A stretch of 64,000 bases of DNA from a virus: IMG/VR virus record IMGVR_UViG_3300020411_003736, positions 1 through 64,000 of that record. One strand, written 5' to 3'. The position numbers were made by a program, and so were the translations under genes. This document shows positions 728 to 47,798 of this stretch, one piece after another. The number at the start of each line of letters is the position of its first letter. Within the stretch, counting starts at the first letter, position 1. The notes below the pieces were generated by a model. The model searched no databases, was not told the origin of the DNA, and saw nothing but the letters and a program-made list of their open reading frames with translations.

Positions 728-1372
728 TTAATTTCTGTTACTATAACTAATCAATTGATTACTTAATAAACTTTGTATTGAATAATAAAGAGATGGATTT
801 CTCTTTAACAACTCTTTAAATTCATTTTGTTTCCAAACTAAACATTCTGTATCATGTTTTGCAATACAAGTTGCTGTTGCTGGTTTTTCAGTAAGAAATG
901 ACATCTCTCCTACAAACTGACCATCTTTCAGTTGAGCTACAGCTTTATGGTCTACAGCAACATCTACTGTACCATTGTATATCAACACTAAATCTGTTAC
1001 TGGTGTATTTTGTGTTATTATTTTTTCACCACAACTATATGTTTTCCACTCAGCTACTTTACTAATTTTTAAATATTCAACAGGACTTAAATCTTTAAAT
1101 AAAGTTTCATACAATTCTTTGTCCTTTGGATCCATATACACAGGTCTTTTTTCATATATGATAACTGCTATGTGATACAGATTAAGAACTATAAAAACAA
1201 AATTCCAATGTATAGCAATCCACATTGGCTCTATAGGTATTACCCAATTATAAAATACAGAAAAGAGACTCGCTAATATAGATACAACTCGTAACCATAA
1301 GATGTCCTTGACCAGAAAAGAAAAGGCTATTAGTCCAAATGCTAAGTGACCAGCTATAAGAGCTATATTCAT
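728..1372 (-). CDS. Popeye-like membrane protein with cyclic-nucleotide-binding domain
   Basis: Three N-terminal TM helices (DILWLR motif), then a CNB domain (LIYNGTVDV...GQFVGEMSFL...ATAT). Confidence 0.8.
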   Translation of the reverse strand: MNIALIAGHLAFGLIAFSFLVKDILWLRVVSILASLFSVFYNWVIPIEPMWIAIHWNFVFIVLNLYHIAVIIYEKRPVYMDPKDKELYETLFKDLSPVEYLKISKVAEWKTYSCGEKIITQNTPVTDLVLIYNGTVDVAVDHKAVAQLKDGQFVGEMSFLTEKPATATCIAKHDTECLVWKQNEFKELLKRNPSLYYSIQSLLSNQLISYSNRN

Positions 1373-1746
1373 TAGAATACATCTTCTGCCAACATATCGT
1401 CTATAGCACCTTTGATGTCTTTAGCAGAACAGTCTACTTCTCCATCCATATCGGCTTTCCAAGTTTCTTTTTTACTTCCATCAAAGAAGAGGGCAATTGA
1501 TGGGAAGTTTCTAAATCTTAATTTCTTAACAACCTTTTTTGCCTGTTCACTCTTAACATAAATGATTTCACAATCTTGGTATCCTTCAACACCTTTAAGT
1601 ATCTTCTTATCTAATTCTTGCTCCTGCCATTCTGCAGTAAAAACAGCCACTACTACACCACCATTTATTTTTTCTTTGAAGTTCTTGTCATTTACTTGTG
1701 AAAATGTAACAGACAGGAATAGCAATAATGTTAATATATTTCTCAT
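1372..1746 (-). CDS. Secreted thioredoxin-fold protein lacking CxxC
   Basis: Signal peptide; VVAVFTAEW(QEQ) where WCxxC is expected; cis-Pro-like NFPSIALF. Confidence 0.6.
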   Translation of the reverse strand: MRNILTLLLFLSVTFSQVNDKNFKEKINGGVVVAVFTAEWQEQELDKKILKGVEGYQDCEIIYVKSEQAKKVVKKLRFRNFPSIALFFDGSKKETWKADMDGEVDCSAKDIKGAIDDMLAEDVF

Positions 1747-40955: not shown

Positions 40956-42104
40956 TTAGTCACTCACCTCATCAAATAATTCTTCATCACTTCCATCACT
41001 CACAAACTTTTGAACGATTTGTTTGACAAAGGTTCTTTCGGAATCAACACCACCACTACTATCGTATTGTGGGTAGATTGTGATATCCGCGGATTCTTCC
41101 AAAGTGAATCCATCAAATAATAGTGATACTATTTCAACAGAAGTTCGAGTTGAGATACCACTACTAATTCGTGGATTATCATTTAGTGATTCCATTCGTG
41201 TCATATGAGATATTTTACTTACATTAGAAACTAATGTCTCATCTACAGATGGAAACATATATCTGAGTAATCCGAACTCTTCTTCTTCATTTAGTAAATC
41301 CATTTCAATAGTAGTGAACCTATCCATAAGTGCCTTATCTAATTGTCGGGTCGCGGTATACTCATTACCTATGTTCGCCGTGGCGACAAATGTAACTCCA
41401 TCAGATACCTTTATTGTATCCGAACCATCTTTTTCATCCAACCTTAAATATCTTTGTCCATAATCCAAAACAGACATTAGGATATTCCACGCATCGGGAT
41501 GTGCCCGCGTCAACTCATCCAATAGTATGATTGAGTTTGGAGTTTGTATCGCCTTTACAAAAAGTGATTCCGAAAAGTAAGTTCCTTTTTTGGAATCGAA
41601 ATGTGTATTTCCAATTAGGGTACTTCGTGGATCTTGTGTACTTCCCAAATTGAAGTAGAAAGATTCCCTATCCAAAGAATTGATTAAGGATTTCGCCGCG
41701 AGTGTCTTACCACACCCCGCTTGCCCTGTCATCATAATATTCTTACCTCTAATCGCAGACCTTATGAGATATTTCCACTTCAACTCTTTCATCACCAAAT
41801 CTTTTGGTTTGAGTTTATATGAAGTTGAAATGAAGTTCATCACTTCTTCGTGTTCAGATGGTATTTCGACATCCGAAGATGGTGGTGTAGTATATGTACT
41901 TCCCATACTATCGAATTGTGACATTGGGACTTTCCACCAATATATCCTTCCACCCTTCCCAACTCTTTGTTCTAAGGCCATACCCGCGTTAAAGGCGGAT
42001 TTTCGTGTGGATGTGAGAATCTCTGAAGTCCTTTTGACTCCATTCTGATCCCACGCATTGAATCTGTTCCCACTTTTTTCAATTTTAACGATTGTTGAAT
42101 TCAT
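40956..42104 (-). CDS. MoxR/CbbQ/NirQ-type AAA+ ATPase
   Basis: Walker A GQAGCGKT, Walker B ILLDELTR, ATAN, LDKALMDRF. Confidence 0.88.
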   Translation of the reverse strand: MNSTIVKIEKSGNRFNAWDQNGVKRTSEILTSTRKSAFNAGMALEQRVGKGGRIYWWKVPMSQFDSMGSTYTTPPSSDVEIPSEHEEVMNFISTSYKLKPKDLVMKELKWKYLIRSAIRGKNIMMTGQAGCGKTLAAKSLINSLDRESFYFNLGSTQDPRSTLIGNTHFDSKKGTYFSESLFVKAIQTPNSIILLDELTRAHPDAWNILMSVLDYGQRYLRLDEKDGSDTIKVSDGVTFVATANIGNEYTATRQLDKALMDRFTTIEMDLLNEEEEFGLLRYMFPSVDETLVSNVSKISHMTRMESLNDNPRISSGISTRTSVEIVSLLFDGFTLEESADITIYPQYDSSGGVDSERTFVKQIVQKFVSDGSDEELFDEVSD

Positions 42105-43191: not shown

Positions 43192-43387
43192 ATCCTCACC
43201 TCTCTCAATGTCTTAACATATTTCCACGCATCACCCATTGTTTTGGAAATGTACTCTTTCGCATCTTCTTCATTTAGTGCGAGAAATGTGTACCCTTCAT
43301 CGGTTCTCCACCTCTTATAGTGTGAGAATTGTTTTGATTTTTTATCTTTCTTTTGTCTCTTCATATTATGTGTCTAACTTCCTTATT

Positions 43388-43600
43388 TTATTTGTTTTTA
43401 TTTGTGAGTGAAATTTGGGTTCGAATCCATTCATCATATATCTTATCTATCTGTTCATCATCATATCCTCTCTTCTGGAATGCATCTTCTCTACTCATAT
43501 ATGTCATAGGTACATCGGATAGATTATACTCCCTACCATATGTATCTACAAATATTCTTTCCTTTAACCATTTAGGTTTATACTCTCTGTATGTTATCAT
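43388..43600 (-). CDS. Hypothetical protein
   Basis: Packed ORF. Confidence 0.5.
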   Translation of the reverse strand: MITYREYKPKWLKERIFVDTYGREYNLSDVPMTYMSREDAFQKRGYDDEQIDKIYDEWIRTQISLTNKNK

Positions 43601-43601
43601 C

Positions 43602-43805
43602 TTAATTCATGTCCTTTTTAACTTTAGGTTCATAGTATACTTTATCATAACAATTTAAACATAATTGTCCACACCCTTCTATATATCCCAATCTGAAATC
43701 CAAATGTTCATCTATGTCAAATTGAGTTTCACAATCACATATCACGCATTTATCTTTAGGTTTTATCTCTTCTTCTATTCCAATTGTCATTAATGGTTTT
43801 CTCAT
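43602..43805 (-). CDS. Small Zn-finger-like protein
   Basis: CVIC...YIEGCGQLCLNC. Confidence 0.55.
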   Translation of the reverse strand: MRKPLMTIGIEEEIKPKDKCVICDCETQFDIDEHLDFRLGYIEGCGQLCLNCYDKVYYEPKVKKDMN

Positions 43806-44050
43806 TTTACTAAATTATATCCTTCTATTAAATCCTCTACTTCATCTGTATTAGGAAATCTCCCAACCTCTTCCTTACTAAACAACATAGATGTCGCGTT
43901 ATTTGTGTGTAGAAACTTTACATTAAATATTCCATCCGAACCTTGTATTAAATCTACTTCTACTCCGAATCTATTTACTAAACTTTCCCTTAAACTAAGG
44001 GCTTGAAATTCATACCCTCATTGAGTACAATACTCTATAGTGATTTTCAT
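43802..44050 (-). CDS. Rdx/SelW-family selenoprotein (82 aa, UGA = Sec at codon 11)
   Basis: MKITIEYCTQU*GYEFQALSLRESL...GSDGIFNV...LFSKEEVGRFP: the Rdx family signature with CxxU. In-frame TGA at 44018-44020; hairpin CCCUUA-GUU-UAAGGG 17-31 nt downstream. Confidence 0.85.
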
Positions 44051-44148
44051 CTATTTATCCATTTATACATTCTAAGAATCTTTTTAATATTCTTTTTATC
44101 TTATTCCTTTCACCTCTATTTCTTTCCCATAATAGAAATAACTCTTCT

Positions 44149-44334
44149 CTAAGTTTTGCCTCCGCTGACTCGCTCATTACTCTCTAATTCCTTTAACTCT
44201 TTTTCCAAACCTTCAATCATCCAACCATCCAAATGTCCTTTGGCTGTCAATTGTTGTTTGATGTGTTCTATTCTTTCCTTTCTCTTTAACTCTAAGGACA
44301 TCCCCTCTATCCAATTAGAAACTTGCTTCATCAA
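44149..44334 (-). CDS. Hypothetical protein
   Basis: Packed ORF. Confidence 0.45.
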   Translation of the reverse strand: MMKQVSNWIEGMSLELKRKERIEHIKQQLTAKGHLDGWMIEGLEKELKELESNERVSGGKT

Positions 44335-44597
44335 CCTCTTAACTCATAGTCTGAATATAAATCATCTTCCAATTCATCTTTCTTCTTACCTAATCTCCTA
44401 ATGATGTCCGACTCTTCCTTATCGGGACTAATACTTTCGGTTTTTTGTGCTATGTCAATACAATGAACCAAAAACTTCAATTGTTTTTCACTTAACGCAA
44501 TTCCATAACTTTTCTCCACATTTGGATTCATATAATTATGAACTTCACCAATTGTAAATTTCTCTTTCATTATTCTTTCTCCAAGGTTATTCCGCAT
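44331..44597 (-). CDS. Hypothetical protein
   Basis: Packed ORF; real start probably MKEKF. Confidence 0.45.
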   Translation of the reverse strand: MRNNLGERIMKEKFTIGEVHNYMNPNVEKSYGIALSEKQLKFLVHCIDIAQKTESISPDKEESDIIRRLGKKKDELEDDLYSDYELRG

Positions 44598-44815
44598 CCT
44601 TCCAACAACTCATCTAATGATATACCATCATCATATTCTTTACATTTTTGCATTTCTTCTACTAAGGGTACTAAAAACTTTTCATTTATTTCGGGCCGTT
44701 CTTCTATCAATCCCATAATAACAATTAATAATTGATTCATCACATCCCCATTCACCACATACTTATTTTCTCTAGCAAATGAGTAATAATCATAAAACTC
44801 GTTGTTAAACATCAC
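44570..44815 (-). CDS. Hypothetical protein
   Basis: Packed ORF. Confidence 0.45.
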   Translation of the reverse strand: MMFNNEFYDYYSFARENKYVVNGDVMNQLLIVIMGLIEERPEINEKFLVPLVEEMQKCKEYDDGISLDELLEGCGITLEKE

Positions 44816-45830: not shown

Positions 45831-47798
45831 TTATTTCTCCAAAAACATATTGTTCATTGTTTTAGCCACTTCCATCATATTTGTGGGATTGATAAAAGTC
45901 GCATCCCTACCATACATTCTACTAAAAGTAGTTTTTTCATTCTCATAGGAATAATCACTACTGATAAAGTAACTCAATATTTTGATTCCATTATTTCGAA
46001 GTTGCTTCACCATTTTTTGAGTATGTTTCACAGCTTCTGTGCCTGAATAATGAATATCATTATTACCAAACCAAGGAGCCCCATCTGAATAATTGATGAA
46101 GTAATTATCATCACTATTTGACAAACCTAAAAAGTGATTCATCATAGCTTCGTAACATAGTGACTCTGGAGTAGTTCCACTAGTTCTAAGTGATGGCCAT
46201 AGATTCTTAACTTTACTTATCTTATCTTTTTGTGAATCATACGCAATCAACAGAACAGGATTATTTTCATTAGTATATCTCATACTCACAACAACTCTAA
46301 TGTTTCCAGCCATCTCAGCCGCTTTAATGATTGCCACAGTAGAGGTAATTGCATTTTCCCACTTCTTACCATTCATAGAACCTGAACCATCAATAGAAAT
46401 ATGAAGATTAGCTTTATTATATCTTTCTGTAAAGGTTTGTGAAAAAACTCTCTCATTACCAAATCCCAACTCAGAAATTAATCTTTTGTCTATTTTACCA
46501 GTATCTTGACGAGTGAAAATTAAATCTCTCTCTTCCCCACGAACCTTTAATTTCTTACCTAACATAGTTCCCAAACGAAGACCCTCAAGAATTGGTTTCC
46601 CATAATGTGAATCCCATACATCATCACCACCATACAACCAAGGTTTTTGAGCAAAATGAAAAGCATTACTATCTATTAAATCTTGAGTAAGATTAGGAAT
46701 AACAACACATTTTGTTTTTCCCATATATCCACCATCACCAACCTCAACCATCTCAGCACCACTTTTTGCAACAGAATTAACAATCTGAGCATCTCTTTTG
46801 GTTAGTTTGGATTTTGGTGTTTTTCCATCCATAAAATCTTTAGCTTTTTGAACAGCATTGATGAGTGATTTCTTTTGTCTATCTGATAACTCTTCAAAAT
46901 CTACAGAATCACCTTTTTCACCATCTTCAGCATCACCCGACTCAGCATCATCTCCTGGAGTCATTTCAGCATCACCAATATCAATAGTAGTTCCACCACC
47001 CATTTGAGAATCACTTTCTTCATTCTCTCCATCACCATTTTGTGACTCCGGCTGACCATTACCATTTTCATCATTGGTAGATTTAACAGAACCAACTATT
47101 GAAAATACCATATTTGAAACTTCTCTAGCCAAATCAATCACACCTTCAGGACTCAATCTCAATACATTTTTCAAATCCATCAAATTGTATATCTCACGAA
47201 GTTTTGGAAGTGCGTCTAAATCTGATTCCTTTGGAGCCATAAAACCTAAGATACGAAACTCATAACTTTCGATATCATACTCACGATACATACCTGATTT
47301 CAAACCCTTCCTAATGGCGTTATTTCTGAAATACTTCTTATAAAGACTGTGGTAGTAACCTTTGTAGCCAGGTGAAGATTTGAAAACCTTAGTATCGATT
47401 CTCCTATCCTCAATAAAGTTAATCATATTTTTGAAAAAAGCCCTTTGTTCATAAGTCCAATCCTCAGGAGTTTCTCTAATAGCGTCAGCCAAAAGTTCAA
47501 AATCACTAAAGGCAATGTGACTACCTTCGTGAAGAGCCAAACCAACTACATGGTCAAAATTCTTATCATTAATATTAGCAGAAATAGTAACATTCTTACC
47601 ATCTGTGTAACTATCTCCTCTTTGTGTATATTTAACAGGAATATTTTGTCCACTTACAATACGAACAAAATTTGCGATAGCTCTCTGATTAGAAGCCATC
47701 TGAATGTAATCTTTCTTTGGTTTTTCCTTTTCGATACCCAACAACTCATCAATGTCAGTATCATATTTATCAAACCAAAAATCCGAATAATTTTTCAT
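45831..47798 (-). CDS. vWA-domain protein with N-terminal HExxH domain (MoxR partner, CobT-like)
   Basis: LHEGSH..EDRRID; acidic linker; MIDAS DGSGS..T..SDG. Confidence 0.8.
   Translation of the reverse strand: MKNYSDFWFDKYDTDIDELLGIEKEKPKKDYIQMASNQRAIANFVRIVSGQNIPVKYTQRGDSYTDGKNVTISANINDKNFDHVVGLALHEGSHIAFSDFELLADAIRETPEDWTYEQRAFFKNMINFIEDRRIDTKVFKSSPGYKGYYHSLYKKYFRNNAIRKGLKSGMYREYDIESYEFRILGFMAPKESDLDALPKLREIYNLMDLKNVLRLSPEGVIDLAREVSNMVFSIVGSVKSTNDENGNGQPESQNGDGENEESDSQMGGGTTIDIGDAEMTPGDDAESGDAEDGEKGDSVDFEELSDRQKKSLINAVQKAKDFMDGKTPKSKLTKRDAQIVNSVAKSGAEMVEVGDGGYMGKTKCVVIPNLTQDLIDSNAFHFAQKPWLYGGDDVWDSHYGKPILEGLRLGTMLGKKLKVRGEERDLIFTRQDTGKIDKRLISELGFGNERVFSQTFTERYNKANLHISIDGSGSMNGKKWENAITSTVAIIKAAEMAGNIRVVVSMRYTNENNPVLLIAYDSQKDKISKVKNLWPSLRTSGTTPESLCYEAMMNHFLGLSNSDDNYFINYSDGAPWFGNNDIHYSGTEAVKHTQKMVKQLRNNGIKILSYFISSDYSYENEKTTFSRMYGRDATFINPTNMMEVAKTMNNMFLEK

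Follow-up and report, generated by a model that had tools for sequence, protein, structure and literature searches.

Within positions 1 to 64,000 of the IMG/VR virus record IMGVR_UViG_3300020411_003736 (this whole stretch of 64,000 nucleotides is called the window here), a short minus-strand gene at 43805..44050 very probably is a functional gene for a SelW-like selenoprotein, carried with a bacterial-type selenocysteine insertion sequence (SECIS) by a marine T4-like phage. A cis element is required for selenocysteine (Sec) decoding, together with three enzymes or factors and a tRNA dedicated to it. The protein family and the mechanism are already known, and the viral carrier is the new element. 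From the sequence comparisons set out below we infer the insertion of Sec, a dependence on selenium, and the protein's role.

The probable selenoprotein gene and its product

The gene has 82 codons, running on the minus strand from an ATG start at 44050 to a terminal TGA at 43804-43802, and its read-through product is MKITIEYCTQ-TGA-GYEFQALSLR...GRFPNTDEVEDLIEGYNLVK. The sole internal stop of this frame is a TGA at codon 11 (44020-44018), within the motif C8-T-Q-U11, where it is proposed to encode Sec at the second position of a CxxU redox motif. The terminal TGA (43802..43804) overlaps, as ATGA at 43805-43802, with the ATG (43805-43803) of the next minus-strand open reading frame (ORF; 43602..43805), and a 40-codon ORF upstream stops 4 nt ahead of the selenoprotein ATG. 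This places the gene in a tightly packed operon on the minus strand. The 82-codon frame is absent from the table-11 ORF listing (minimum 30 amino acids). The original prediction, made from the letters of this stretch, had described a frame of this length that the ORF caller misses, with a single TGA at the second redox position and a final stop overlapping the next ATG; all three features are present as it described them, on the minus strand.

The assignment to the Rdx/SelW family, also part of that prediction, is borne out by profile searches. The read-through protein scores 59.2 bits against Pfam PF10262 (Rdx; cut-off, 22.6; E = 4.8e-16) over profile positions 1-73 of 74, in a match that spans the TGA, and it passes NCBIfam TIGR02174 (CXXU_selWTH) with 40.9 bits versus a cut-off of 34.2. 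Its score for the narrower equivalog NF041051 (Campylobacter-type) falls short of the cut-off (64 versus 88). A six-frame search of the 130-kb record with the Rdx hidden Markov model found one copy only, at 51.1 bits with 1 TGA inside.

The AlphaFold model, built on nine viral-type sequences, has a mean predicted local distance difference test (pLDDT) score of 90.4 and the order beta-alpha-beta-beta-beta-alpha, with the CxxU motif between strand 1 (residues 2-8) and helix 1 (residues 14-28). The best PDB folds are those of the bacterial SelW-related proteins 2ojl, 2obk, 2fa8, 2oka, 3dex, and 2p0g (template-modeling [TM] scores, 0.74-0.85), followed by MIEN1 and mouse SelW, and a profile search of PDB sequences returned 2ljk, 2fa8, 3dex, and 2npb. 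PHROGs has no family for the SelW-like protein, and the BFVD library of viral folds yielded 0 matches at E <= 0.001, with generic thioredoxin folds only. The product is an Rdx/SelW-like protein with a thioredoxin-like fold and a CxxU redox motif.

Conservation of the UGA at codon 11

A sequencing error, which the original prediction had expected to appear as TGT or TGC in the reads, is ruled out as the origin of the TGA by contigs from two other studies. A 1080-nt contig from run X3 covers 43535-44614 with 0 differences, and a 1104-nt contig from run X7, which belongs to a different study, covers 43312-44351 with 9 differences, none of them at 44018-44020.

The codon is likewise kept among relatives. 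A scan of IMG/VR gave 70 pattern matches, 10 of which encode relatives of the SelW-like gene, and TGA stands at codon 11 in all 10 of these viral loci (8 distinct sequences, 38-66% identity by tblastn). A separate DNA-pattern scan for the Sec form recovered the same 10 viral contigs, and the corresponding scan of viral contigs for the Cys form gave one match, which is not an Rdx gene, and 0 Cys forms of the subfamily. For the cellular comparison, 512 relatives were confirmed in one-genome-per-species bacterial contigs and the best 80 were kept; codon 11 is TGA in 80/80 of these best relatives. The cellular search pattern selects the SelW-like subfamily, so Cys forms may occur elsewhere. These counts agree with the expectation that homologs have Cys or Sec at position 11, apart from 2 Ser residues among database hits that are taken up below.

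In an exhaustive HMMER search, 52 of 68 database hits were aligned after 16 long or multidomain rows had been dropped, and position 11 of the aligned hits shows 23 W, 19 C, and 2 S, while the remaining 8 hits start after this position and have a gap there. The W residues would be TGA codons read under genetic code 4. A public JGI gene call on a 2515-nt contig, P0003, is 98% identical and 86 amino acids long, with W at both TGA positions and the tail WENH. It is evidently a code-4 call, and illustrates how mis-translated versions of such genes get into databases.

Downstream of the TGA, 20 columns are invariant across 9 viral rows, including G40, F42, S58, K59, and R64-F65-P66. The viral sequences have diverged to 43-65% identity to the window protein (protein alignment), and their frame 3' of the TGA is open. 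Conservation as protein 3' of the TGA, the absence of which would have spoken against the original prediction, thus holds in 9 distinct viral sequences. Judged from these alignments, the UGA at codon 11 is kept by selection.

Three IMG/VR contigs of 32-49 kb (L002-L004) carry a divergent copy of the selenoprotein, identical among the three and 45% identical, which is longer at the C-terminus and has 5 residues inserted after helix 1, and in which the UGA and the hairpin are unchanged. A tblastn search of 50,697 isolate-phage records found no match to the SelW-like protein, and blastn of the 2 kb around the gene gave only a 121-nt match, to a Pelagibacter phage, outside the gene.

A covarying hairpin downstream of the UGA

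The RNA 3' of the UGA can form the hairpin CCCUUA-GUU-UAAGGG (43987..44001, minus strand), with the 5' arm at 44001-43996, the loop GUU at 43995-43993, and the 3' arm at 43992-43987. The UGA is followed by 16 nt up to the stem and 22 nt up to the loop, so that the G opening the loop is the 23rd nucleotide after the UGA. Position and G-starting loop are those of the SECIS-like hairpin that had been predicted, and the hairpin proved to be conserved and covarying.

The codon-aligned hairpin region is gap-free in 89 sequences (9 viral and 80 cellular). RNAalifold, unaided, recovered the helix exactly when given the 9 viral rows and, when given all 89, its five inner pairs. The viral rows are paired in 54/54 cells (100%), and 2/6 pairs have changed on both sides with no broken combination. 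These double changes fall at synonymous third positions (Ala GCC/GCU with Arg AGG/AGA, and Leu CUU/CUC with Leu UUA/UUG), giving C-G, U-A, and U-G at one pair and U-A and C-G at another. Across the 89 rows, 96.3% of the cells are paired, 4/6 pairs have changed on both sides, and there are 93 double-change cells. Column shuffles reached the observed pairing or covariation score in 0 of 500 trials, in the viral set and in the 89-row set, and slid controls on the 89 rows paired in only 35-58% of the cells. The loop opens with the same base, G (column 29), in 89/89 rows; the viral loop reads GUU in 8 of the 9 rows and GUG in 1.

The hairpin was compared with the consensus model of bacterial SECIS (bSECIS) elements as given in the legend of Fig. 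2 of PMC13188914. The 3-nt loop is at the lower limit of the 3-9 nt of the model, and the 6-bp stem lies within its 4-16 bp. The loop starts with GU, where the model has a G at loop position 1 or 2, mostly followed by G or U, and the spacing of 22 nt (columns 7-28 of the ungapped alignment) lies within 16-37 nt. The likeness to a bacterial SECIS asserted by the original prediction therefore stands for loop, stem, loop start, and spacing; its energy is considered with the points weighed below. The comparative evidence supports a putative bacterial-type SECIS inside the coding sequence.

Selenocysteine machinery

No selA, selB, selD, or tRNA-Sec was found in the 130-kb record, which is estimated to be 71% complete; at that completeness, the phage would therefore have to rely on its host for these functions. 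Such a reliance on host SelA, SelB, SelC, and SelD had been proposed from the outset, and it is a sound deduction, with no Sec machinery in the 130 kb and a Sec-using candidate host phylum (see below). Among the cellular carriers of the gene, SelB scored above its curated cut-off in 15/15 tested. This supports a reading of the TGA as Sec in this SelW-like family.

The carrier is a T4-like phage

The window belongs to an IMG/VR record of 130,380 bases that encodes a T4-type major capsid protein (Gp23, 256 bits), a tail sheath, a family-B polymerase (PolB), a class II ribonucleotide reductase, and a baseplate wedge protein. Its nearest isolates are Microcystis phage Mel-JY01 (50.7% capsid identity), Flavobacterium phage immuto (49.6%), and Rhodothermus phage RM378 (38%). 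The G+C content of the window is 32%, and it is 31-33% across the gene region, like the rest of the record. The selenoprotein gene lies at 44 kb of the 130-kb record. The carrier is a marine T4-like phage, and the gene is inside a bona fide phage genome and flanked by phage genes, not in host DNA at the end of a contig; the capsid, sheath, and baseplate proteins and the IMG/VR record itself confirm the phage origin that the letters had first suggested.

Proposed mechanism and points against it

In the mechanism that we propose, phage mRNA would be translated by host ribosomes, and the hairpin 16 nt downstream would recruit host SelB·GTP·Sec-tRNA(Sec) at the UGA of codon 11. Insertion of Sec would then give a SelW-like protein of 82 residues, with a thioredoxin fold and Cys8-x-x-Sec11 as its redox centre; if Sec-tRNA(Sec) or SelB were lacking, the ribosome would stop at a 10-residue peptide. 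The phage would supply the gene and the cis element only, with SelA, SelB, SelC, and SelD coming from the host, and the protein would act as a thiol/selenol oxidoreductase during infection.

Several observations weigh against this interpretation. The hairpin is small and weak, and the energy limit of the model (<= -7.5 kcal/mol) is narrowly missed: taken alone the hairpin has -6.3, and the best fold containing it -7.2 (ViennaRNA, 37 C, 51-nt stretch; the energy window of bSECISearch itself may differ). Only 1/9 viral copies (L013, -8.1) passes this filter, and 7/8 of the copies besides that of the window fail. A competing helix in the window (43996-44020, minus strand), in which UGAGGGU, including the Sec codon, pairs with GCCCUUA (the 5' arm plus one base), is the minimum-energy fold, at -10.5 to -11.4 kcal/mol versus -7.2. 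The other 8 viral sequences do not conserve this helix, which may be either a chance pairing or a local switch. A search of 43700-44150 against Rfam returned no hit at E <= 10. The viral covariation reflects a small number of independent events, because the sequences are related and only 2/6 pairs vary. Ser occupies position 11 in 2/44 aligned database homologs that have a residue there. The record is 71% complete, so the phage itself may carry Sec genes. Finally, two metatranscriptome runs from one sample gave an identical 170-nt contig over 44581-44700, upstream of the gene, for which DNA carry-over is possible; the metatranscriptome contigs reach only this interval, outside the selenoprotein gene, and are silent on its expression.

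Alternative explanations of the in-frame UGA

Among the alternatives, SECIS-independent read-through survives best, although we assign it only a small probability. A near-cognate tRNA (Trp, Cys) or a suppressor would decode the UGA to give CxxW or CxxC, and the hairpin would slow the ribosome or be a by-product of the A-L-S-L-R peptide. The weakness of the hairpin fits this explanation (-4.2 to -6.5 kcal/mol in the nine viral copies, which are more A+U-rich, versus a cellular median of -7.0), as does its being made of codons for a conserved peptide; the phage record also lacks Sec machinery, and Sec insertion here is a prediction. However, the paired positions of the nine viral rows covary at synonymous sites with no broken pair, which conservation of the peptide alone would not demand. 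The same hairpin with its invariant loop G is found in 80 cellular genes, with SelB in every one of the 15 cellular genomes tested. A Cys codon would moreover be the simple route if Cys were wanted, yet no Cys form of the subfamily was found in viral contigs.

A change of genetic code, in which phage or host reads TGA as Trp (code 4) or Gly (code 25), is very unlikely. It is what the P0003 call assumed, whose 86 residues have W where both TGA codons stand, and under a TGA-sense code the window frame would be only four codons longer. Against it, the long table-11 frames tile the window without in-frame TGA, and TGA terminates 22/85 window frames of 100 codons or more. When TGA is taken as sense, the additional frames lie mostly on the plus strand (65 versus 24). 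The sole tRNA in the 130-kb record is Gly-TCC, and there is no suppressor tRNA in it; a crude scan of the whole record for in-frame TGA beside Cys found no other protein-like frame. The genes of the viral relatives end in TAA or TAG yet retain this one TGA at codon 11.

The least probable explanation, a dead or truncated gene in which translation really ends at the TGA and the frame beyond it is decaying or not translated, would account for table-11 gene callers skipping the frame and for metatranscriptome contigs lying outside it, but it is at odds with a downstream frame that is open and protein-like in 9 distinct, strongly diverged viral sequences, with a TGA that never reverts or shifts in relatives, and with a gene tightly packed between its neighbours through the ATGA stop/start overlap.

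A candidate host

The evidence on the host of the phage that carries the SelW-like selenoprotein gene comes mainly from a 910-aa TonB-dependent receptor gene, beyond the window, at record 92770-95502 (L006:8770-11502, minus strand). A protein-atlas look-up placed this receptor next to clusters labelled Fidelibacterota. It matches 76/151 genomes of the phylum of G004 (Candidatus Neomarinimicrobiota/Fidelibacterota) at E <= 1e-80 and 59-69% identity over residues 6-910, several of them on long contigs. The controls gave 0/285 matches for the phylum of G007 and 0/201 for the class of G571; Bacteroidota and Gammaproteobacteria were not among these controls. The phage Rdx profile matches 243/401 genomes of the candidate phylum, with the in-frame TGA in all but one of the matches listed, and example loci from this phylum have 33-36% G+C. 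SelB was present in 5/5 genomes with full-length receptors 65-66% identical to that of the phage, the best after the very incomplete G315. We take this phylum to be SAR406/Marinimicrobia. NCBI places Fidelibacterota in the FCB group. On the receptor matches, the chances appear even that the host is a member of this FCB-group phylum, labelled Candidatus Neomarinimicrobiota or Fidelibacterota.

The phylogeny of the SelW-like protein does not point the same way. In a quick Rdx tree (75 columns, weakly resolved), the nine viral rows form one clade with a Shimodaira-Hasegawa-like approximate likelihood ratio test (SH-aLRT) support of 89. This clade lies beside five alphaproteobacterial rows (SH-aLRT 92), a weak placement at 75 columns, and not among the rows of the candidate phylum, which weighs on the negative side and counts against a simple recent capture of the gene from that phylum.

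Other routes to the host were set aside. Rdx similarity is uninformative, as the best 80 cellular relatives, spread over many phyla, do not exceed 48% identity, and the tree is weakly resolved. A SAR11-type host was set aside on no more than a hint: 35 of a sample of 401 genomes of the class of G571 (Alphaproteobacteria) match, and none of the 35 is under 2.1 Mb. A search within the phylum of G006 had no bearing on the host. The loop GUU, common to the phage and the candidate phylum, was dropped as host evidence, being confounded with low G+C; low G+C favours the Leu codon UUR over CUG, so the shared loop is not evidence. A literature search on SAR406 phages found nothing relevant.

Gene neighbourhood

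The selenoprotein gene lies between an AAA_5 (MoxR/CobS-like) ATPase (40956..42104, minus strand; Pfam AAA_5, 63.2 bits; PHROG 249) and a 655-aa protein (45831..47798, minus strand) whose match to Pfam VWA is weak, at 20.7 bits below the cut-off of 23.8. This module is collinear in L015, a viral contig of 131 kb, where the neighbours are 41-82% identical, and rearranged in the viral contigs L010 and L012. The ATPase is 82% identical in L015 and 69-70% identical in L010 and L012, and the VWA-like protein has homologous stretches in all three.

Directly downstream of the selenoprotein gene, the small Cys-rich ORF at 43602..43805 (minus strand) encodes 67 amino acids and is probably translationally coupled to it. 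A 66%-identical copy is found in the same relative place in L015. Two Cys pairs (CVICDC ... CLNC) occur in this ORF, which has no family match.

Together with the TonB receptor, the two flanking genes (40956-42104 and 45831-47798, minus strand) and record 95589-97598 resemble a set of cobalamin-related genes.

No glutaredoxin was found in the 130-kb record. Its sole thioredoxin-like ORF (1372-1746, minus strand) looks secreted, scores 21.3 bits for Pfam Thioredoxin, which is under the cut-off, and is without CxxC. Within the 130 kb, the SelW-like protein is therefore the sole candidate for a thiol/selenol oxidoreductase that has a redox motif. One may speculate that it serves as a helper of the phage ribonucleotide reductase.

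Discussion

The closest known counterparts of the phage gene are bacterial. Bacterial SelW-like selenoproteins are "predicted with high confidence" in a passage of a 2026 review (PMC13188914), and a passage of the Global Ocean Sampling (GOS) study ranks the SelW-like CxxU proteins first in abundance among marine selenoprotein families. The phage gene shares with them the domain, the length, the place of CxxU, the UGA codon, a homologous hairpin that agrees in spacing and in its loop G, and the fold. It differs in being encoded without Sec machinery in the 130-kb record, in belonging to a viral clade of its own whose members share no more than 48% identity with the 80 best cellular loci, and in having a weaker and more A+U-rich hairpin.

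T4-type phages encode thioredoxins and glutaredoxins, such as NrdC of T4. The present gene resembles these in specifying a small thioredoxin-fold redox protein in a T4-like phage that also encodes a ribonucleotide reductase, but it is of the Rdx family, with Sec replacing the second Cys.

Among viruses, the passages of a 2021 recoding review give the poxvirus glutathione peroxidases (GPx) of molluscum contagiosum and fowlpox virus as the only selenoproteins (PMC8310308). These too are virus-borne selenoprotein genes with their own cis element that use the Sec machinery of the host, and in fowlpox virus, according to the same source, the SECIS is also in the coding region. They differ in being of animal viruses, with a eukaryotic-type SECIS and the GPx family, whereas the phage gene has a bacterial-type hairpin just 3' of the UGA and belongs to the Rdx family. 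Passages on huge wastewater phages report tRNA-Sec genes, as tRNA genes only, with no selenoprotein gene named (PMC10747093). These genes hint at an engagement of phages with the selenocysteine system, although the layout is opposite: a tRNA-Sec there, and here a selenoprotein gene and no tRNA-Sec.

The full-text literature, with subscription journals and supplementary files outside its scope, yielded no paper describing a selenoprotein gene in a bacterial virus. The words phage and virus are absent from the 2026 review of prokaryotic selenoproteomes, and the passages concerned of PMC8310308, PMC10747093, PMC13188914, PMC9312934, PMC2398784, and PMC9402790 contain no phage-encoded selenoprotein.

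A wider picture can be drawn, which we consider rather improbable as a whole. An abundant lineage of marine T4-like phages, probably infecting SAR406/Fidelibacterota, would have long kept its own selenoprotein clade, with the gene in an AAA/VWA module beside a B12-related set. Phage DNA synthesis would thereby be coupled to host selenium and cobalamin, and the UGA/SECIS element would read the selenium status of the host.

If the phage gene is a selenoprotein gene as proposed, viruses of bacteria would also be able to exploit the 21st amino acid. Such a gene would mark the host as a selenocysteine user and thus aid host prediction for uncultured phages. Genes of this kind are systematically missed by standard gene callers or mis-read under code 4. 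The phage element would also make available for study a compact natural UGA/SECIS cassette, with a 6-bp stem and a 3-nt loop. Part of the most abundant selenoprotein family of the ocean may be virus-borne, in a share that is probably small, given 10 viral contigs and this record.

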